DNA of 64,000 bases from the IMG/VR virus record IMGVR_UViG_3300043811_000074, positions 1 to 64,000 of that record; one strand, written 5' to 3'. The position numbers and the translations under genes were made by a program. Positions 83-45,764 of the stretch are shown here, one piece after another (positions within the stretch are counted from its first letter, which is position 1; every line of letters starts with the position of its first letter). The stretch comes from a virus. The notes beneath the pieces were generated by a model. The model saw nothing but the letters and a program-made list of their open reading frames with translations, was not told the DNA's origin and made no database searches.

Positions 83-3000
83 ATGCAGGTCATCCTCCTG
101 GAGCGCCAGAAGAAGCGCCTGGAGGGAATGGGCGACGAACGCGCCGGCTTGCTCCAAGAGGCGCGGCGGCTGGTGGAGGAACTGAAGCAGAAAAAGGAAA
201 ACGGCGAGCGGCTCACCGAGGATTGGTTCGATACCTGGACGCCCTGGAGCGGCGGTCTTGGCTTGGATGCAAACGGCTGGCATCGGCCCAATCTGCTCAT
301 TGACACGACGTTCTCACGGAAGGGCGGCAAGGACTGGCCGCGCATCTTCACCGAAATCGACCTGGACCGCGAACGCAATTTCTCCCGTCAGCTGATCTAC
401 GATAATGCGCACGCCAAGGGATTGCTCAGGAACTACTGCAATTACGTCATCGGTTCGGGGCCGAAGCTGAAATTCACACCACGTAATGACATTGGCGAAG
501 GCCACGAAGAACATGCCGAGAAACTTGCCAAGCTGGGCACGAAATATCTGGAGGGCTGGGCCAAACGGCAGAAGTTCGGTAAAACGGTTCGCGAGGCGCT
601 CTGGCGCATAAAACAAGACGGCGAAGCGTTTCTGCGTCACTACGTCTACAACGGCGAATTGGTACTGCGCTGGATTGAGCCGGTCTACATCCGCAACAAG
701 CCGGGCGGCACGGAGGCAGAAGGCTGGACGCTGGGCATTCAGCATCGGGTATTCAGTGACGGCACGGAGGACGTACAAACGATCATCAACTACCACGTCG
801 TCCATTCCACACTGTTGCAGCAGCATCGCGCGTGCGAGGGCGGTAAGGCGAAGTGGCCGACGCCGATTGAAGACGACAAGCGCACGGCGACGGGTGAAGT
901 CGTGCCGGCGCGGCGCATCTTGCACCTGAAGAATTTCGACACGCCTGGCACGGTCAAACGCGGCCTGCCGGAATTTCGCGGTGAGACAGCAGGCGGCTTG
1001 ATTCGTGCCTCGGCGCTCCTGTCCGCGACGATGGAAGGCAACACGGAGCGAGCTTTGATTGCCTGGGTCAATCAGTGGGCCAGTGCCACCAATGCCGGCA
1101 TCACGGCCTTTGCGCCGACAGGTGACGGCAGTGGGTTAGATACCTGCGGCCGGTTCTGGTTTGGAACGGGCAAGCGTGGACCGTATGAAGTCAACGTCCC
1201 CAAGGGGCATGAATATGTCGAGCGTCCGCACTCGGCAGATACGGCCAGTGATATAGAGGCATTTCAGGCCGGGCTGGGCGCGGGCGGGGTAACGTTCTGC
1301 GCTCCGAAGTATTGGCTGGGGGATACGGGCGATGCGTCGTATGCCTCCAGCAAAGAGTACGGTAGCCCGATCATGCGCGAGAGTGAGACGGCGCAAGAGG
1401 AACTGACAGAGCCGGTACGCCAGCTGGCCATGAAAGCTGTGCAGGTGCGTGTCCGGCGCGGTCAACTGCCGCCTGAACTCCTGCAATTCTGCGAACTGCA
1501 AGTCGAGATGCCGAAGCTGATGGTCCGGGACCGAGGCGAGACGATCAAGGAAGAAATGGAACTGGCCACGGTGCAGCCCGGCATGGCCGAGCCGGTCCAA
1601 TCCATGCAGACCACGCGAATGAATCTTGGCCTCAATCAGGACCAGGAAAAGAAAAACATCAAGCTGGAACAGAAAGAGAATCCGCCACCTGAAGCGCCGG
1701 GGCCGGGTGGACCAAAACCGCCTGATGGTGGCGGGCCACAGATTCCGACGCATGACGGGCCGCCGCGCCCGCCCGCGCCGACGGTGACGCAGCCGAAGAT
1801 GGAAGACAGGCCGGATCGGGTGCGTGAGTCCGCTTTGTCCGCCGTCCGTACCGCCGACTTCGCGGGCACAACCGGCCTTCAGGAATCGGCACAAGCCTTG
1901 CCGGTCTTCATTTATGGGACGTTGCTTGACCCGCGTGTTCGCGCCAAGGTTGTCGGCAACGTCTCCGAAGCGCCGGCGCAGTTGCCGGGTTACAAGAAGA
2001 CCGATGATCGGCATTATCCCGACCTGGACGCCGACAATGGCGAGAGTGTCGAGGGGATCGCGCTGGACGCCACGCCGGAGCAGATTGCGGCCCTGGACAA
2101 GTGGGAAGGGTCAGACGGCTACAAGCGTGTCAAGGTGACGCTGGCCGATGGGCAGCAGGCGTGGGCTTATACGCGACGGCAGGCGGTCAGGGAAGAACTG
2201 GACGTTGCCGGGCATCAGCACAAAGGCACTGGGCCGGGCGGCGGCCAGTTCACCAAAGGCGACGGTGGTAGCAAATCAACCGCCGAGAAAATCACGAGCG
2301 CCTTTCGCTCCGCTGCCAAATTCATGTCGAGCAAGGGAAAAGCGATTTACAACAAACTGCCGTCTCCTGTCCGCAAGGTGATTCAAGGCTATCTCAAGGC
2401 GCGATTCAGTCTCTATCTTGGCGCACAAGCAGCTGCCAAGTCGATACTCACGGAACGGCATGGGCCGGAGCGCGCCGAACAGGTTGGGCGCATCCTCTTG
2501 GCTGCGGATTGGGCCGGGCAGTTCGCTGGGACGCCGCTTGCTCCATTTACCGCTGGCGCATCGCTTACCAGTTCTTTCGTGCCGGTTGCATCCGTGGCTT
2601 ATTGCCTGTTCAGCACGGCAACGAACCCGGCCGCGACAATCAGGGCTGCGAAGAAAGCAATATCGGCGACGATGCAGCGCCTTGGCAATGTCGGCATGAC
2701 GCCGCGCTTGGCGGAAGAAATCAAAGACGATGTAGAAACCGTGGTCGATGCGATGGACGATCAGACGGATGGCGAATGGTTCACGGCGCTTGTGTGCGTT
2801 GCCCTTGACGAATGTAAGGGCGACATGGACGCGGCGCTTGAACTGGGCAGCGAAGCCGTGAAAAGCGAGCGACCGGAACAGGATGACGGCGATGACGATC
2901 TTGCGGACCTGTTCCGCCTCAACGAGGAGTACAACCCGGAGATACACGGCGGGTTTCTTGAATGGGAGAAGACGCAAAAACCGCAACAAATCCGCGAAAA

Positions 3001-38021: not shown

Positions 38022-39305
38022 ATGGTCGCTTTCGCGCGTTCTTACATCAAGTACCGGGACAAGCCTGGCAGTTTCATCAAACGACCGCACGCCGCCAGTC
38101 AGTCCTACGCGCCAGGGCAAATCTGCCGCGATTACAATTGGCCCAACGGCATCGCAGTACAACCGCTCACCATTGCCATCATGGAACTCGGTGGCCACTT
38201 CTACCCTTCCGACCTCTCGCCGTGGGCAGCGCGGGCCAATCTGCCGGTTCCCGTGGTCAATACTTTCATGCTGCCCGGCGCGGACGATTCGCCTTCGGAC
38301 GCTGACGGCGAGGTCATGTTAGATGTCTTTTGCGCTGCGCAGGCGTACTCTTCCGTCACCGGCCTGCCCGCGAAAATTCTCATCGTCTATGGCCCCAACA
38401 CGGGGCAGGCGTTCGCGGACATTACCGAATACTGCAACACGCTGACCGGCATCGGCTCCGGTTCCGGTTCGTGGGGCACGGCGGAAACCAACTCGGCAGA
38501 TTCAGACCGCGCCAACTTGGACGCACAACTGCAAAGAGCGCTGTTTCCGTGGCATTACGCCAGTGGCGACAATGGTTCCAATGATGGGACGAACACGCCG
38601 ACAGCCGATTGGCCTTCGTGCAGTCCTTACCTTGCCAGCTGTGGCGGCACGTCCAAGGTTCCCGGCTCGGGCGCGGAAACGGTCTGGAACAATGGCAATG
38701 GCGAGGGGACGGGCGGCGGCTTTTCCAAGTTCTACGGGCGCCCGATCTGGCAACCGGCGAACACTCAGGGCACAGGCCGCATGGTTCCCGATTGGGCAGC
38801 GGTCGCCGATCCGAACACCGGCTATGACACGCTCATCAATGGCAGCTGGCAAGTGATCGGCGGCACATCCGCCGTCGCTCCACTCTTGGCCGGGTTCATG
38901 TGCGCCGTCAACGGGGCGCGGCTCAAGCTGGGTCTGCCGATGATCGCGCAACCCAATCAAATGATCTGGTCGATGTTGAGCAGCTATTACGACATCATTT
39001 CCGGCTCCAATGGCGCGTACAACGCCGAAGCTGGGCCTGACCCCTGTTCCGGGGCCGGGCGGCCCACGGCAACCACGTTCGCCATGATGACCGGAGCCAG
39101 TCAGGTTCCGCCTGTGCTGCCGCCTCCGGTCAACTCCCCGCCCGTAAATCCGCCGCCTGCAACGCCGGCCTTTGTCCTGACCGTGCCGACGCCGATCAGG
39201 GCCGGGCAGACGTTCAAGATCAAGGCAGGCAAAGCAATCGCAGCAGGCAAGTACGATTGCTTCCCGTCAAGCGGCGCGGCGGACGCAGAAGTATTCGCCG
39301 ACTGA
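38022..39305 (+). CDS. S53 (sedolisin/kumamolisin-like) serine peptidase without a long propeptide
   Basis: EVMLD (Glu/Asp), ASGDNG, GGTSAVAP (Ser), DIISGSN...G.DPCSG.G Ca site. Confidence 0.9.
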   Translation: MVAFARSYIKYRDKPGSFIKRPHAASQSYAPGQICRDYNWPNGIAVQPLTIAIMELGGHFYPSDLSPWAARANLPVPVVNTFMLPGADDSPSDADGEVMLDVFCAAQAYSSVTGLPAKILIVYGPNTGQAFADITEYCNTLTGIGSGSGSWGTAETNSADSDRANLDAQLQRALFPWHYASGDNGSNDGTNTPTADWPSCSPYLASCGGTSKVPGSGAETVWNNGNGEGTGGGFSKFYGRPIWQPANTQGTGRMVPDWAAVADPNTGYDTLINGSWQVIGGTSAVAPLLAGFMCAVNGARLKLGLPMIAQPNQMIWSMLSSYYDIISGSNGAYNAEAGPDPCSGAGRPTATTFAMMTGASQVPPVLPPPVNSPPVNPPPATPAFVLTVPTPIRAGQTFKIKAGKAIAAGKYDCFPSSGAADAEVFAD

Positions 39306-39327
39306 CCCTTCACGGAAAGGACGCCCC

Positions 39328-39495
39328 ATGATCTGTAACAAGTGCGGCTGGCGCATGGCTGGGCCGTTTGAACATGAGACCTGTCCCAAGTGCGGGGAAA
39401 TGCTGCTCCGGTTTCGAGAGCAAGAGGAACCGGAGCAAGTCAAGGATGATAAGCCTGCCGACGAACCGCAAGAGCCGGAGAAGTGCCGCCCATGA
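39328..39495 (+). CDS. Small Zn-ribbon protein (55 aa)
   Basis: AAGGA RBS; MICNKCG...TCPKCG. Confidence 0.55.
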   Translation: MICNKCGWRMAGPFEHETCPKCGEMLLRFREQEEPEQVKDDKPADEPQEPEKCRP

Positions 39496-39512
39496 CCACC
39501 GCGAATTTATCT

Positions 39513-39674
39513 TTAGCCGCGCCTCCCATGCCAATTAACCGCGTCTCGTCGGCGCTGTGTATGACGGCCCGCGAGCCGATGCACTCGCGTCAGCCGCGCC
39601 GTGGCCCGGAGACTGTTCCCCTCAACCAGATGGTGCAGGACTTGGACTTGCTTATCGCGGGGCAGGATGTTCAT
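39513..39674 (-). pseudogene. IS1-family transposase N-terminal fragment
   Basis: MNILPRDKQVQVLHHLVEGNSLRATARLTRVHR HTH, then similarity stops abruptly. Confidence 0.7.
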
Positions 39675-39719
39675 GGGAAGCGCCTTTCCGTGCTTGGCGG
39701 TCCCCGGTAGAATGGAGTT

Positions 39720-39800
39720 GCTAGGCCGCATTCCGGTGGGAAACCGCTGGATTGTGGTTGCCCCGGTAAGTGCTGATAACACTCGCCGGGGTTTTCTTTG
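39720..39800 (+). ncRNA. Candidate antisense RNA to the transposase leader
   Basis: TTTCCG-17 nt-TAGAAT (39685-39713); hairpin CCCCGG..CCGGGG plus TTTTCTTT. Confidence 0.45.
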
Positions 39801-39801
39801 C

Positions 39802-39852
39802 GACTATAGTATTATAGACATTATCAACCACAATGTCCATAGTTCTATAGAC
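39802..39852 (-). promoter_or_regulatory. Transposase promoter overlapped by two 18-bp operator-like boxes
   Basis: TGGACA-17 nt-TATAAT on -; boxes GACTATAGTATTATAGAC and GTCCATAGTTCTATAGAC. Confidence 0.65.
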
Positions 39853-39875
39853 GATTTTGACGGAAAATGTCGGAT

Positions 39876-39967
39876 TACGGGGAGCGGGATTTGCACCCGC
39901 ACGGGCCTTTTGAGGGGGTTCCCACCGGTTCCCAAAACCGGCGCGTCTGCTGTTCCGCCATCCCCGC
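39876..39967 (-). tRNA. Atypical tRNA: Pro anticodon (TGG) on a Leu-like long-variable-arm body, no encoded CCA
   Basis: GCGGGGA TG GCG GAACAGCAGA CGC G CCGGT TTTGGGA ACCGG [24-nt V arm] GCGGG TGCAAAT CCCGC TCCCCGT A; all four stems pair. Confidence 0.8.
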
Positions 39968-39969
39968 GC

Positions 39970-40020
39970 AAAGAAAAAGCCAGCCAGGGAACGCACCGCG
40001 AACGATGGTTCCCAGCTGGC
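39970..40020 (-). terminator. Terminator immediately upstream of the tRNA
   Basis: GCCAGC-TGGGAAC..TTCG..GTTCCC-TGGCTGGC then TTTTTCTTT on -. Confidence 0.65.
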
Positions 40021-40122
40021 CGGGTTGGTTGGTTTTTGCCGCTGTGCGCGCACGAACGCGCACAGCGGTTTTTGTTGACAGTCAGACTTGAAGAATGGTG
40101 GGGAACGTGCTAAAGTAGAGAA

Positions 40123-40225
40123 CGAACCCTGATTGGTGCGCCGGTACATAGGCACACTCCTGTAGCAAGGGAACAATGGGTTCAACCGGGCTGGTGTGTT
40201 GACGCATACCAGCCCAACCCGTTTA
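40123..40225 (+). ncRNA. Candidate antisense RNA over the leader-ORF RBS/ATG upstream of the tRNA
   Basis: TTGAAG-17 nt-TAAAGT with TG extension (40088-40116); hairpin GGGCTGGTGTG/CATACCAGCCC at 40188-40215. Confidence 0.45.
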
Positions 40226-40239
40226 TGGTTTCATGCCTT

Positions 40240-40680
40240 TTACTTGTTCAATTCCTCAATGGCCCTATCAGACAGCCGGTAACGGCTCTTTGGCTTCCCT
40301 TCATCGTAAATCTGTTCGCGCACCAGCGAGTCCCGACCAAATTTGGCATCGGTCCTTTTCCGCACGCTGCGGATGACGGGCGGCAGGTTTGCTGCCGGTA
40401 TACCGATTTTCTTGGCCAATTCGTCCGTAGTCAGCCAGCCCGTCGGTGCGCGTGCCAGGGCTTCGAGAAGGTCTTCCTCGACCTTCTTCAGATTGTCGCT
40501 GCGGGTGTCGGAGATCGGCTCGGCGTTTGAGCCGTTTTCTGATGGACGGGACCGGCGCGGCTTTCTGATCGCCGATCCATTGACTTGATGACCCTGGATG
40601 AGCGCCTGAATACGGACGGCTTCCTCCGTGGTTTCCACTTCGTAGACAAATCCATCAGGTGTAGTCAGTTTTGCGGTCAT
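40240..40680 (-). CDS. Winged-helix DNA-binding protein
   Basis: LLEALARAPTGWLTTDELAKKIGI...SRYRL; AAGG RBS. Confidence 0.65.
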   Translation of the reverse strand: MTAKLTTPDGFVYEVETTEEAVRIQALIQGHQVNGSAIRKPRRSRPSENGSNAEPISDTRSDNLKKVEEDLLEALARAPTGWLTTDELAKKIGIPAANLPPVIRSVRKRTDAKFGRDSLVREQIYDEGKPKSRYRLSDRAIEELNK

Positions 40681-40807
40681 GGTTCACCTTTCCTAATTGT
40701 AATTGTCAACAGAATCATTACAAGCCTATTTTGTCTGTTTTTATTTTACCGTGCCATTACTGGCTTTGCAATGGTTTGGCATTGTTTACCAATTGAAAAA
40801 CATCCTC

Positions 40808-40836
40808 TTGCCACCGCGTCCATAGTTGTATAGACT
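40808..40836 (+). promoter_or_regulatory. XRE gene promoter with an 18-bp box
   Basis: TTGCCA-17 nt-TAGACT; GTCCATAGTTGTATAGAC at 40818-40835. Confidence 0.65.
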
Positions 40837-40843
40837 TGAAAAC

Positions 40844-41059
40844 ATGAAAGAGAACACCCATCTTCGTGTGATGGTCAAGGTCCACAAGGCGGTCAAAAGG
40901 TCCGGCTTGTCGCTTCAGGACGTGGGCCTGCGCATGGGCTATCCCGAAGCCACGGCTCGCAAGAGCGCGTGGCAATTTCTGCGCAGCAAAGACCCGCGAC
41001 TGTCGATGCTGTTCAGGTTCGCACAAGCGATGGGGCTGGACGTGAAAGAACTAATTTGA
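40844..41059 (+). CDS. XRE-family HTH regulator
   Basis: SGLSLQDVGLRMG...DPRLSMLFRFAQAMGLDVKEL. Confidence 0.8.
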   Translation: MKENTHLRVMVKVHKAVKRSGLSLQDVGLRMGYPEATARKSAWQFLRSKDPRLSMLFRFAQAMGLDVKELI

Positions 41060-41117
41060 ACAGGGGCGTTGACGTGCGGAATGAATCCCCTCCCCCTTTT
41101 TTCTTGATCGGTCAGCC

Positions 41118-42578
41118 ATGTCAAAAAAGAAAGCTGTTACTCCGCTGACCAATGCCGGGGTGATCTATTGCGGAGACAATCTGGAAAAACTTCGCGCCAT
41201 GCCGGGAGCAAGCGCCGACTTGATCTATATTGACCCGCCCTTCAATTCCAATCGCAATTATGAAGTCTTTTGGGGTGAGACGAAAGAGAAGCGGGCCTTT
41301 GAGGACCGGCACGAATCGACTCGCGCCTATATCGACTTCATGCGGCCCCGGTGCGTTGAACTCGCCCGCGTCTTGAAAAAGACCGGCAGTTTTTATTACC
41401 ACTGCGATTGGCACGCCAGCCATTACGTCAAGGTGATGCTGGATCAAATTCTTGGAGAAAACAACTTTCAAAATGAAATCGTGTGGAAGCGAAGTACGGC
41501 GCACAGCGATGCAAAACAGGGAAGCAAACACTATGGCCGTGTTCACGACGTACTGCTTTTTTACACGGGCAGCTCGGCCGATTTTACCTGGAATCAGCTC
41601 TACACGCCGCTGAGCGAGAAGTACATCGAATCTCACTATAGACAGGTCGATGAACATGGCCAACGATTTATGTGGGACAACATTACCGGACCTGGCGGCG
41701 CAGCAAAAGGCAACCCTTATTACTCAGTGTTGGGGGTCGAAGGTTATTGGCGGTACTCGCAAGAGCGGATGACGCAATTGATAAATGATGGGTTGGTTGC
41801 CATCCCTCCGAAGGGCAGAACGCCGCGATTAAAGCGATATTTGACAGATTCCAAGGGCTTGCCATTGCAAACCGTGTGGGATGACCTGTCGCCAATAAAC
41901 TCTCAGGCAAAGGAATCGCTCGGCTATCCGACGCAAAAACCGCTTGCGCTTCTTGAGCGAATCATCAGAGCAAGCAGCAATAAGGGAGACGTTTGCCTTG
42001 ACGCCTTCTGCGGATGCGGTACGGCTCTTGTCGCTGCCGAGAAGTTAGGCCGGCAGTGGATCGGCATGGACATTTCCCCGACTGCCTGCCGTGTCATGGC
42101 CGAACGGCTCAAGAAGATTTGCAAGCTACAGGAAGGGAAGAATTTTGTCGTTCGCGATTTACCGCGCAGCGCGGAACAATTGCGGAGAATGCCGCCGTTT
42201 GAATTTGAGAATTGGGCTGTGATTGCCTTGGGCGGAATTCCCAATAAAGCGCAAGTCGGAGATATGGGCATCGACGGTCGAATCTACCCGGTTTCTGCCG
42301 TGCCGAAAAAAGCAGCGAAGGGGGAAGAATTCGACTTCATGGACGTATGGTATCCGATCCAAGTGAAACAAAAGGACAAGGCAGGACGGCCCGACATTGA
42401 TTCCTTTGAAGCCGTGATGATGCGGGAAGATCGGCAGAAAGGGTTTTTCGTGTCTTTTGACTTCACGTCGGATGCCATGACGGAAATCAACGGCTTTTTC
42501 AAAAAGACAGGAAAAGCAATAATCGCGCTAACCGTTCAGGAAATTCTGGACGAAGAAATCGCGATGAAACTCGCCTGA
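41118..42578 (+). CDS. Beta-class N6/N4 DNA methyltransferase fused to an Mrr-like nuclease domain
   Basis: IYIDPPF, GYPTQKP, DAFCGCGT; C-terminal FENW..GDMGIDG..IQVKQ. Confidence 0.88.
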   Translation: MSKKKAVTPLTNAGVIYCGDNLEKLRAMPGASADLIYIDPPFNSNRNYEVFWGETKEKRAFEDRHESTRAYIDFMRPRCVELARVLKKTGSFYYHCDWHASHYVKVMLDQILGENNFQNEIVWKRSTAHSDAKQGSKHYGRVHDVLLFYTGSSADFTWNQLYTPLSEKYIESHYRQVDEHGQRFMWDNITGPGGAAKGNPYYSVLGVEGYWRYSQERMTQLINDGLVAIPPKGRTPRLKRYLTDSKGLPLQTVWDDLSPINSQAKESLGYPTQKPLALLERIIRASSNKGDVCLDAFCGCGTALVAAEKLGRQWIGMDISPTACRVMAERLKKICKLQEGKNFVVRDLPRSAEQLRRMPPFEFENWAVIALGGIPNKAQVGDMGIDGRIYPVSAVPKKAAKGEEFDFMDVWYPIQVKQKDKAGRPDIDSFEAVMMREDRQKGFFVSFDFTSDAMTEINGFFKKTGKAIIALTVQEILDEEIAMKLA

Positions 42579-44457: not shown

Positions 44458-45564
44458 TTACTCCGTGAACAGGGATTGCGATTCCTTGTCGGCTTCTTCC
44501 GCGAGCCGCCGATACGCTAGATCGACCTGAGACTGCCGTAGGTCGCATCCTAAAAAGTTCCTGCCAAGCCGCACAGAGACAGCTGCCGTGGTCCCCGATC
44601 CACTGAAGCAGTCCGCCACGGTATCACCTGGCCGGGAAAAGCCTTTGATGAAAAACTCGCAAAGCCGCTCCGGGTACGGGGCTTCCCCTTCGTGCGCCAG
44701 CTTGCTGCCAATATGACCACCGCCTACCCGCGCTCTCACGACACCACCGCAGCCGTCCGTCTCGTCGATCAGGATGACGTTGCCCGGATTTGCAAACTTC
44801 GGCATCGGGCGATTGCCGTTCTCTTTCAGCTGGCCGTCTACTTCGTGGCCGGCGGTGCAGTCCATTTCGCGGAGGACTTTCTTGTATTTGCCGTTGGCCC
44901 GACGAGTCGGGCCAGACATACCCTGTTTCGCCGCCGCACGATCCTTTTTCCGGCCGTCCTTATGACGGCCGGAAATCCCGACGAGACCGCCAGTGTTCCA
45001 AGGATCAACGCCGAAGTCTTCGGCGTTGATGCGGCGTCCGTCTGCATTGCGGTTGCTCATCTCCCCGCCGACCTGAGAATACTTCGGCGCATGACCCACG
45101 GCTGCCACATCAAAGTACGGCAGCGCGCCGGGTCGCTTGAAGCAGAGGACGTATTCCCAATCAGCACGGAGATAGTCGCTCCCGCCGCTCCCCGGTATCC
45201 CGGTGCCGCCGCCATTGCGGTCAACCTTGTGCCAAACGCACGGCCGGTACTGATGACAATTGCCGCCACGCTTCCACCAGAGATAGGCCAAACCCTCGCA
45301 CGCGGGCTGATACCTGCGGTCCTTGGTCGGTCCTGAGACAACCCAAAAGATCGGGCCAGTGACGACGCGCTGCGCTTCAGTCAGAATCTCAAGCTGCCAC
45401 TCAATCCAGGCGTCCGTGTCACGGGCGACACCTAGGTCAACGCCGTTCTCTAAATAAAGTCGCTGAAGCGTGTAGGGAGGCGACGACACACACAGCTGCA
45501 CGCTGTCCGTTGGTTGGGACCGCCAGAACTCCGTTGCGTCAGACTTGATAATCGTCGCTGTCAC
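44458..45564 (-). CDS. Beta-class DNA methyltransferase (SPPY, probably N4-C)
   Basis: SSPPY; HEGEAPYPERL; DCFSGSGTT. Confidence 0.85.
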   Translation of the reverse strand: MTATIIKSDATEFWRSQPTDSVQLCVSSPPYTLQRLYLENGVDLGVARDTDAWIEWQLEILTEAQRVVTGPIFWVVSGPTKDRRYQPACEGLAYLWWKRGGNCHQYRPCVWHKVDRNGGGTGIPGSGGSDYLRADWEYVLCFKRPGALPYFDVAAVGHAPKYSQVGGEMSNRNADGRRINAEDFGVDPWNTGGLVGISGRHKDGRKKDRAAAKQGMSGPTRRANGKYKKVLREMDCTAGHEVDGQLKENGNRPMPKFANPGNVILIDETDGCGGVVRARVGGGHIGSKLAHEGEAPYPERLCEFFIKGFSRPGDTVADCFSGSGTTAAVSVRLGRNFLGCDLRQSQVDLAYRRLAEEADKESQSLFTE

Positions 45565-45764
45565 CTTGCCTCCCTCCCCGGCCACTCGCCCCGTGCGTCA
45601 AGGTAACTCCGGCACACTTCCGCCAGCGCCGCCCCGGCGAGGCAGCTGCCGCTGACCGGGATGCCGTAGCAGCCATTGGCGTCGCGCTGTGTTTGCAGGT
45701 GGGCAATCGCCTGCTGGATGGCGCGGTCGTCGTCTTCGTCCAGGGTCAGGTGCATGTGTTTCAC
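45561..45764 (-). CDS. Hypothetical protein
   Basis: GGAGG RBS, GTGA coupling at both ends. Confidence 0.55.
   Translation of the reverse strand: MKHMHLTLDEDDDRAIQQAIAHLQTQRDANGCYGIPVSGSCLAGAALAEVCRSYLDARGEWPGREAR

Follow-up and report, generated by a model that had tools for sequence, protein, structure and literature searches.

A leucine-type tRNA with a proline anticodon, probably gated by a leader and terminator, in a phage and in Planctomycetota

We analysed a stretch of 64,000 nucleotides (nt) of viral DNA (hereafter the window), which is the first 64 kb of the 72,720-bp IMG/VR virus record IMGVR_UViG_3300043811_000074, a record with direct terminal repeats that is rated complete. On its minus strand lies a gene for a transfer RNA (tRNA) whose body is of the leucine type and whose anticodon, UGG, is that of proline, preceded by a short leader open reading frame (ORF) and an intrinsic terminator. 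We propose that leader and terminator form a ribosome-dependent transcription attenuator, which would sense the decoding of the tRNA's own codon and keep a probably mistranslating tRNA scarce, and that the whole constitutes a conserved mobile cassette; judging from sequence, we put the probability of this reading at about 0.55. The safest statement is narrower, namely that the tRNA would be obtained only by read-through of the terminator, and that a conserved leader carrying the tRNA's own codon stands just before it. This layout is common to a few bacteria, and synthesis of such a risky tRNA is therefore probably held under tight control. The elements of the module, from upstream to downstream on the minus strand, are the following:

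40240–40680, minus strand, gene of 146 amino acids for a winged helix-turn-helix (wHTH) protein (ORF list and AlphaFold/Foldseek)
40187–40216, no strand assigned, hairpin 1, 3′ of the wHTH gene (−17.3 kcal/mol, z −2.9)
40096–40161, minus strand, leader, with AGGAG at 40157–40161, ATG at 40147–40149 and 18 codons, MYRRTNQGSFSTLARSPP
40088–40116, plus strand, antisense promoter-like site, TTGAAG-17-(TGc)TAAAGT, 8/12
40039–40068, no strand assigned, hairpin 2, 13 base pairs (−28.1 kcal/mol, z −5.1)
39970–40021, minus strand, attenuator, an intrinsic terminator with the tail UUUUUCUUU ending 2 nt before the tRNA (−30.7 kcal/mol, z −5.3)
39876–39967, minus strand, tRNA of 92 nt with anticodon UGG and leucine-type body (ARAGORN Pro/tgg; Rfam tRNA)

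A preliminary description of this region had named a wHTH gene followed by a hairpin, an AGGAG with an ATG at 40149, a U-tailed terminator that stops 2 nt short of the tRNA and, last in the minus-strand order, a chimeric tRNA, and all of these were recovered at the positions given above. The AGGAG and the ATG are 7 nt apart, codons 17 and 18 of the leader are CCA CCA (40096–40101), and the 273-nt leader region folds with a z of −5.4, none of 200 shuffles being as good. The attenuator was identified by its fold energy and U-tail, and is not flagged by a simple terminator scan. Since no promoter fits between the U-tract and the 5′ end of the tRNA, transcripts would have to start upstream and the tRNA would be reached only by read-through.

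The tRNA, the only one in the window, scores 48.9 bits with the Rfam model RF00005, whose gathering score is 29. It has a long variable arm, A73 and a G1–U72 pair, and carries AGC in the D loop, where GG is usual, and the T loop UGCAAAU. The minimum free energy fold of this tRNA alone is uninformative, since it gives no cloverleaf and no gain over shuffles. Relatives were first found by a pattern that combined the unusual D loop (AACAGCAGA) with the T loop UGCAAAU and matched metagenome loci (L096, L101/L105 and L102) and loci of metagenome-assembled genomes (L108, L111, L113 and L109, from Terriglobia, Bryobacteraceae and Planctomycetota); a covariance model built from seven family sequences (R1) added four loci of Planctomycetota (L141, L142, L151 and L152). 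The family thus comprises 11 loci, window included (the outlier L106 is omitted from the counts), and anticodon UGG and A73 are present in 11/11. ARAGORN called UGG in the window and in seven of the ten other loci, and the anticodon loops of L109, L141 and L142 were read from the alignments; L141 carries A instead of U at position 33. In the unfitted alignment of seven sequences, 161/161 pair cells are standard and nine pairs show compensatory changes, and in an alignment of 12 sequences, which was fitted to R1, 99.6% are paired and compensatory changes occur in 15 of the 23 pairs (0/500 shuffles as good). The acceptor stem opens with G1:U72 in the window but with G1:C72 in the other members, and the variable arm has at least 21 nt. 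These loci define a new natural family of leucine-type tRNAs with a proline anticodon, distributed over Planctomycetota, Acidobacteriota and one phage.

Most family members keep the same elbow bases (D-loop AGC for G18–G19; T loop UGCAAAU for UUCRAAU), with the T-loop variants UGCGAAU in L142, UGCAACC in L151 and UGCAAGU in L152. The elbow looks co-changed and could alter recognition by RNase P, by leucyl-tRNA synthetase (LeuRS) or by the ribosome. The outlier (L106:2074–2166, 45 bits), from a high-GC metagenome contig, is a distant tRNA-shaped relative with the same D and T loops and another anticodon arm, which ARAGORN reads as GAA. In an acidobacterial subgroup (L096, L101, L108 and L113) the 3′ CCA is encoded, about 38 nt downstream of the tRNA are common (with AGTATA...TGTCAAG) and nothing upstream is; its members have neither leader nor U-tailed terminator, and a DUF5343-like gene lies upstream in L096 and L108 (Pfam-confirmed for L108 only).

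The leader and the abutting terminator, together the gate, are present in four of the 11 family loci, the window and three Planctomycetota genomes (L141, L142 and L151). The abutting terminators of these three reach −37.2 kcal/mol (z −6.9) in L141, −32 kcal/mol (z −6.6) in L142 and −32 kcal/mol (z −10) in L151, and in 4/4 gate loci the U-tract is 0–2 nt from the tRNA. Terminator strength and position are retained although the stem sequences differ between the window, L151 and the pair formed by L141 and L142. In all four, the Shine-Dalgarno sequence (SD) and ATG precede CCACCA by exactly 48 nt; L141 and L142 show BLAST homology only from 79 nt upstream of the tRNA, which means that SD and ATG were retained without alignable sequence. 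The leader peptides of the other three loci are:

L151, MYGNTWAGSFFILPRSPP
L141, MYLAKGRAGRRIVARGPP
L142, MWDRIPGSLIHVVARGPP

All four leaders end in (V/L)(A/P)R(G/S)-P-P and both prolines are always CCA, the codon matched by the anticodon UGG, whereas the arginine codon ahead of them is CGT, CGA, CGG and CGC among the four leaders, and the serine codon is TCC in the window and AGC in L151. In 20 phage ORFs, 17.7% of the proline codons are CCA, and an in-frame CCACCA is not seen once among their 10,955 codons. This invariant pair, which the preliminary description does not mention, is the strongest clue to the regulation. Hairpin 1 is followed on the minus strand by GGTTGAACCCA (40177–40187), and this hairpin with GGTTGAACCCA is common to the window and L151. 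Since the core of the arrangement recurs in three other loci, chance does not account for it. Constraint appears to act on start, length and C-terminal motif only, which is common among attenuator leaders. The preliminary description had suggested a look for the same layout around homologous tRNAs: SD/ATG, 18-codon leader, CCA-CCA and abutting terminator are present in 4/11 loci, and the other seven have no gate. A different leader ORF was observed in L152 (tRNA at 1501–1593, with 140 nt upstream): it is tryptophan-rich (MPWWRFCAPWFWF...) and has a good SD and no abutting terminator; a transposase lies upstream on the same strand, and TGGTGG there is the reverse complement of CCACCA.

How such a gate may operate can be outlined as follows. 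In the phage, transcripts probably start at the promoters of the wHTH gene, which is probably co-transcribed with leader and tRNA. The short leader would be translated up to codons 17–18, CCA-CCA in a stall-prone ...R-(G/S)-P-P context. In L141, L142 and L151 the prolines are 8–11 nt from the terminator stem, and a ribosome paused on CCA-CCA would have its front edge at the foot of the terminator, pulling the hairpin from the U-tract and allowing read-through. Masking of the mRNA to +13/+16 from the P site, with the ribosome at codon 17/18, removes 1–6 basal pairs in L141 and L142 and 0–3 in L151; because the loss of these pairs separates the remaining hairpin from the U-tract, a Pro-Pro pause would weaken termination. 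If CCA-CCA were decoded faster, for instance with the help of the tRNA made from the cassette, the pause would be shorter and termination would return, and the outcome would be a negative feedback holding the tRNA low; if the tRNA carries leucine, quicker passage through CCA-CCA would likewise alter its own synthesis. The opposite sign is conceivable, with the pause uncoupling the ribosome from RNA polymerase and leading to more termination, as in the coupling dependent on elongation factor P (EF-P). We prefer the sign in which the pause gives read-through, although the EF-P work suggests the reverse.

The window departs from this geometry. A 67-nt insert with the hairpin at 40039–40068 separates leader from attenuator, so that the phage version would rely on translation through the hairpins or be partly decoupled. 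The leader frame runs here through both hairpins, and continued translation could oppose termination. An open frame through terminator and tRNA, as the preliminary description had it, does exist in the window (from the ATG at 40149 to 39721) and is not conserved, since the stop of the L151 leader sits inside the terminator loop. Hairpin 2, which the preliminary description had listed between ATG and terminator, is present as well; its T-run is on the plus strand, which is why we read it as a plus-strand terminator, and the scan flags a terminator on that strand (40038–40079). It is absent from L141, L142 and L151 in the alignment of these loci with the window, and is probably the terminator of the late operon, a phage-specific insert between leader and attenuator. 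What stands of the gating proposed for this tRNA is the leader ORF and the terminator, with no room for a separate tRNA promoter and both kept in 4/11 loci; the open frame and hairpin 2 are not kept.

A cis-antisense RNA, transcribed from a promoter inside the leader, may add a further control by covering the leader ribosome-binding site (RBS). The plus-strand promoter proposed at 40088–40116 was found in part: a site is there, with homologues in L151 and L141, but it is unflagged in the window, as 8/12 is below the scan threshold of 9, and no comparable antisense promoter site is present in L142. The predicted RNA (about 40123–40225) would lie over SD and start codon of the leader, and on the plus strand hairpin 1 would end it. 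In L151 the homologous site (TTGATT-17-TAGAAT, 9/12) is flagged as the sole promoter-like match in 600 nt and is directed against the tRNA strand; a terminator on this antisense strand, with the tail ACTTTAATTT, is flagged at the hairpin that lies upstream of the RBS. By eye, L141 has TTGAAT-17-GACAAT (8/12) at the homologous place and an antisense-strand hairpin followed by TTTGTTCTTTGTT, neither of them flagged by the scan. The TCAA after the prolines (TTGA on the other strand) is kept in three loci despite differing amino acids (FK, IN and FK), which fits a promoter constraint. We give roughly even odds that an antisense RNA, some 100 nt long and covering the leader RBS, exists.

Several observations weigh against the attenuator as proposed. 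The gate is found in only 4/11 loci and the other seven have no such terminator, the two closest relatives of the window tRNA (L102 and L109) being among those without a gate: in L102 a consensus promoter lies 190 nt upstream and an ACGPPP-stop falls inside a hairpin, and L109 has a hairpin without U-tract. In the window itself, the insert puts the prolines 76 nt from the terminator and masking is without effect. A conserved antiterminator pairing was sought and none was found. Codons 2–16 of the four leaders show 53/52/61 differences by codon position, with no clear third-position excess, so that selection at the peptide level is evident only near the C-terminal motif. The antisense promoter is just 8/12 in the window and missing in L142, and the TCAA after PP and codons 12–13 could equally be held by that promoter. 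Finally, the altered elbow might impair charging or use by the ribosome, in which case the tRNA might have no part in translation.

Regarding the amino acid carried, four carrier genomes have one family member each (99–112 bits by R1), the family being single-copy where present, and the next-best R1 matches in these genomes (57–68 bits) were tRNA-Leu in 8/8 examined. In G001, the D arm of the family member equals that of tRNA-Leu(UAG) apart from the D loop, and the anticodon loops are distinguished by the single change A35G (CUUAGGA vs CUUGGGA); G001 also keeps a canonical 75-nt tRNA-Pro(UGG). The body is that of a type II tRNA-Leu, with its leucine-type D arm, long variable arm and invariant A73. 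Of the tRNA-Pro traits the anticodon alone fits, the variable arm (at least 21 nt) and the first pair (G1:U72 or G1:C72) being at odds with them; bacterial tRNA-Pro is marked by a short variable loop and a C1:G72 pair. The family looks to be descended from tRNA-Leu(UAG) via A35G and to be now a CCN reader. Most likely, it would insert leucine at CCN proline codons, as the leucine-type body, A73 and a bacterial LeuRS that does not read the anticodon make plausible. The accessible parts of the literature describe LeuRS recognition as anticodon-blind, and report for yeast that a tRNA-Leu engineered to carry UGG inserted leucine at proline codons and impaired growth.

The family is rare. Its diagnostic pattern (at most one mismatch) occurs in 5/398 genomes of one Planctomycetota family, the exact pattern in 1/401 genomes across a phylum sample, this one being the query genome itself, and R1 gave 2/151 genomes in an acidobacterial order and 1/3 in the genus of G368. 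Among viral contigs, a T-arm pattern matched at least 80 loci, with no family member among the matches listed (21 other tRNAs and 59 with no tRNA), three further patterns gave no match and another gave one, which is not a tRNA. In the metagenome and viral sets together 20/25 pattern matches were not tRNAs, and among genome matches 5/9 were outside the family; the metagenome scan was a single exact-pattern scan. An IS1595 transposase lies within about 1 kb in seven of the ten non-phage loci (L102, L109, L113, L141, L142, L151 and L152) and is Pfam-confirmed in L102, L142 and L151. The rare, patchy distribution together with the adjoining transposase indicates a mobile cassette.

No transposase remnant was found in the window by tblastn (nothing better than E 0.1), no second full copy of the element in G001 or G124, and no convincing terminal repeats, the one inverted repeat (20 nt) into which the 5′ end of the tRNA falls being probably due to chance. 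We also considered a recoding of the transposase genes with proline for leucine and rejected it, as there are no such alignment columns. The transposase gene is often convergent, ending 15–31 nt from the tRNA 3′ end (L142 and L109). In L141 an ORF for a PemK/MazF-family toxin (1195–1629, plus strand) lies between tRNA and transposase, and in L113 an ORF for a HicB-family antitoxin (1804–2475, minus strand) lies upstream, with a small possible HicA partner.

That the window derives from a tailed phage is confirmed by genes for a tail tape-measure protein, a head protease and helicase/terminase-like proteins. The tRNA module is on the minus strand, between the end of the plus-strand late genes and the regulatory region, in the following surroundings:

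ending at 39305, plus strand, sedolisin-like ORF, the last late gene
39802–39851, minus strand, two copies of a 17-nt box, TCTATANAACTATGGAC (39802–39818 and 39835–39851), over a strong promoter just downstream of the tRNA
39811–39839, minus strand, this strong promoter downstream of the tRNA, 11/12
40818–40834, no strand assigned, third copy of the box, in the divergent XRE/wHTH promoter region
40826–41059, plus strand, XRE-like gene, in the regulatory region
41118–42578, plus strand, N6/N4 DNA methyltransferase fused to a C-terminal Mrr-type restriction endonuclease domain
44458–45585, minus strand, second methyltransferase

Two of the three window copies of the box are exact and one has three mismatches, and 0/100 shuffles reach three matches; the boxes are likely operators of one repressor, bracketing the tRNA module. 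In the wHTH protein, the C-terminal half was modelled with confidence as a winged helix (helix-helix-helix-beta-hairpin, pLDDT 81–90, AlphaFold on the single sequence), and the top Foldseek matches of the model are MarR/ArsR/PadR regulators, although weak (best E 1.7e-3). This protein has no Pfam, PHROG or PADLOC match, matches only itself among 5.8 billion proteins and has no relative among viral contigs, where a neighbouring protein of 427 amino acids has none either; blastn of 39300–41100 against 50,697 phage records gave no match. A conserved upstream regulator was rejected, being unsupported by BLASTP: the window wHTH protein has no similarity to the upstream ORFs of L109 or L151. Among the neighbours of the module, PADLOC matched only the methyltransferases.

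Two further observations concern the DNA on the 3′ side of the tRNA. An ORF of 54 amino acids follows the strongest promoter found here (MNILPRDKQVQVLHHLVEGNSLRATARLT..., 39513–39677, minus strand) and resembles the truncated N-terminal helix-turn-helix of a larger protein; it has no family match and no counterpart in the related loci. A plus-strand promoter-like site (39815–39843, TAGACA-17-CATAGT, 9/12) is directed back across the tRNA, with the strong plus-strand terminator at 40038–40069 just past it, and this site, plus read-through from the late operon, would yield an RNA antisense to the tRNA itself. The 64 kb are GC-rich and hold 142 ORFs of at least 120 amino acids, so spurious long ORFs are common.

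Turning from the gate to its purpose, the most far-reaching reading, to which we give a rather low probability, is a mobile mistranslation switch, in which a leucine-charged tRNA would rewrite proline codons, the leader would gate it by its own decoding at CCA-CCA and the antisense RNA would be a second lock. With positive feedback, it would serve phages and IS1595 elements as a toxin or abortive-infection device made of RNA only; with negative feedback, it would let them dose proteome-wide Pro-to-Leu errors under stress. The preliminary description had proposed a toxin-antitoxin or abortive-infection module, in which the antisense RNA holds the leader off and its loss lets the tRNA be made, with proteome-wide mistranslation; the cell would then die of Pro-to-Leu errors. 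Two layers, terminator and antisense, would indeed both hold the tRNA off, the cassette sits in a moron- or defence-like spot beside the methyltransferase-Mrr fusion and is bracketed by operator boxes, and relatives adjoin the PemK/MazF toxin gene (L141) and the HicB gene (L113). According to the accessible text, toxin-antitoxin systems are found in the vicinity of irregular acidobacterial tRNAs, of which two variants were lethal to E. coli (Mukai et al., 2016/17). If pausing favours termination, the tRNA would moreover relieve its own pause and a runaway switch would result. We nevertheless consider such a module unlikely: toxicity, an unstable antisense RNA and a trigger are all hypothetical, the leader peptides, for instance that of the window, are polar and basic rather than hydrophobic toxins, PADLOC matches nothing but methyltransferases nearby, and the antisense promoter is weak or absent in 2/4 loci. 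Attenuation acts, besides, only in ongoing transcription; a stable pre-made message could therefore not be unlocked once the gene is lost or the host shut off, and killing in the manner of hok/sok would be impossible. As to the biological role, the main rival reading is that of a back-up tRNA for proline, charged with proline via G35, G36 and A73 and induced when CCA decoding fails, for example because the host tRNA-Pro(UGG) has been cut or depleted by a nuclease toxin or a defence to which the foreign body and elbow confer resistance. Its sensor codons would be the tRNA's own, which is the logic of classical attenuators and mgtP, and UGG is kept in 11/11 members, although a tRNA charged with leucine would be free to acquire other anticodons; the carriers are a phage and mobile elements, a MazF-family toxin adjoins the tRNA in L141, and carrier genomes own a canonical tRNA-Pro(UGG) as a possible target. 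The body, however, is plainly that of a tRNA-Leu, with a long variable arm foreign to tRNA-Pro, position 72 is C or U and not the G72 that bacterial prolyl-tRNA synthetase is reported to need, position 37 is A in four members, and most loci have no linked nuclease, so that a back-up role seems doubtful to us.

Two other explanations would dispense with the gate or with decoding altogether. The arrangement could be an ordinary one, in which the hairpin does no more than terminate the operon upstream, leaky read-through supplies the tRNA, and leader and antisense promoter are functionless inheritance. The abundance of spurious ORFs in this GC-rich DNA, the lack of a third-position signal in codons 2–16 and the below-threshold promoter match of the window would agree with it, as would the relatedness of the four gate loci, owing to which their shared features are not independent. 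It is nonetheless improbable in view of an SD and ATG found at the same 48-nt distance in L142 despite an unalignable flank, of a CCA-CCA that is invariant while the adjacent arginine codon takes four synonymous forms, and of terminator stems that vary in sequence and keep their strength and their contact with the tRNA. A very unlikely explanation, in our estimate, is that the tRNA-shaped RNA works outside translation, as a part, target or regulator of IS1595-type elements, the phage copy being a leftover. The transposase within about 1 kb in 7/10 non-phage loci, often convergent and as close as 15–31 nt, and the unusual elbow bases point in this direction, and some irregular tRNAs were suggested to be tied to transposable elements rather than translation in the accessible part of one study (Mukai et al., 2016/17). 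The window, however, has no transposase remnant, G001 and G124 have no second copy of the element and terminal repeats are not convincing, the transposase genes show no Pro-for-Leu recoding, and the anticodon loop, A73 and all stems are kept as in a working tRNA.

Leader-peptide attenuation is textbook knowledge, and to our knowledge there is no case in which it gates a tRNA gene, let alone one in which that tRNA's own codon is the sensor. In the literature outside supplements and subscription journals, we found neither a bacterial or phage family of leucine-type UGG tRNAs, nor a tRNA gene under leader-peptide attenuation, nor a tRNA toxin. If the proposed switch is true, no tRNA gene under leader-peptide attenuation and no tRNA serving as a defence or addiction effector would have preceded it. 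It would also show in what way a code-breaking tRNA can be carried safely by cells, phages and insertion sequences, and would provide a natural, compact and protein-free circuit for dosing mistranslation. The purpose of natural mistranslating tRNAs becomes directly testable with a 1-kb clone.

Several known systems share parts of this design. The classical leader-peptide attenuators are those of trpL, hisL and pheL. Leader attenuators with proline codons are also known, as in mgtP/mgtL of Salmonella, which senses charged tRNA-Pro according to the accessible text of that study (Lee and Groisman, 2012). As in these attenuators, a short ORF with tandem sensor codons is followed here by an intrinsic terminator, and control would lie in the dwell time of the ribosome. 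Unlike them, the regulated gene is a tRNA and not a protein operon, and the sensor codon is that tRNA's own; no conserved 1:2/2:3/3:4 pairing was found, a paused ribosome would in three loci touch the terminator, and no conserved stop precedes the terminator. In hok/mok/sok, a cis-antisense RNA targets the RBS of a leader ORF that is needed for a harmful downstream product, and the predicted cis-antisense RNA described here would similarly be aimed at a leader RBS. The product, in contrast, is a tRNA and not a membrane peptide, the coupling would occur via transcription termination and not via translation, no stable pre-made toxin message would be possible and the antisense RNA is putative.

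Polyproline pausing has been described, in the accessible part of the work, to affect intrinsic termination in an EF-P-dependent manner (Elgamal, Artsimovitch and Ibba, 2016). The likeness to that coupling, as far as described there, is a Pro-Pro pause just upstream of an intrinsic terminator, in a translated frame. The described effect is a general side effect within genes, while we observed a dedicated and conserved 18-codon leader before a tRNA, and its sign (a pause gives more termination) is opposite to that of the model that we prefer. The allo-tRNAs, as presented in the accessible text, have 8/4 or 9/3 acceptor/T stems and serine identity (Mukai et al., 2016/17). The present family resembles the irregular tRNAs treated there in its long variable arm, in the mismatch between body and anticodon, in its occurrence in soil/peat Acidobacteria and phages and in its vicinity to toxin-antitoxin and transposon genes. 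An allo-tRNA identity was considered and rejected, since the stems, with a 7-bp acceptor and a 5-bp T stem, are fully paired in all members and the D arm is of the leucine type; the accessible text of that study contains no UGG member and no leader or terminator gate. Lastly, the tRNA-ProX/ProRSx pair of Streptomyces inserts proline at other codons by means of its own synthetase, in the account accessible of it, and shares with the yeast tRNA-Leu(UGG) and with our family the disagreement of body and anticodon and a mistranslation that involves proline. Unlike ProX as so described, the family reported here lacks a dedicated synthetase in its neighbourhood, would place leucine where proline is encoded and carries its gate in cis.

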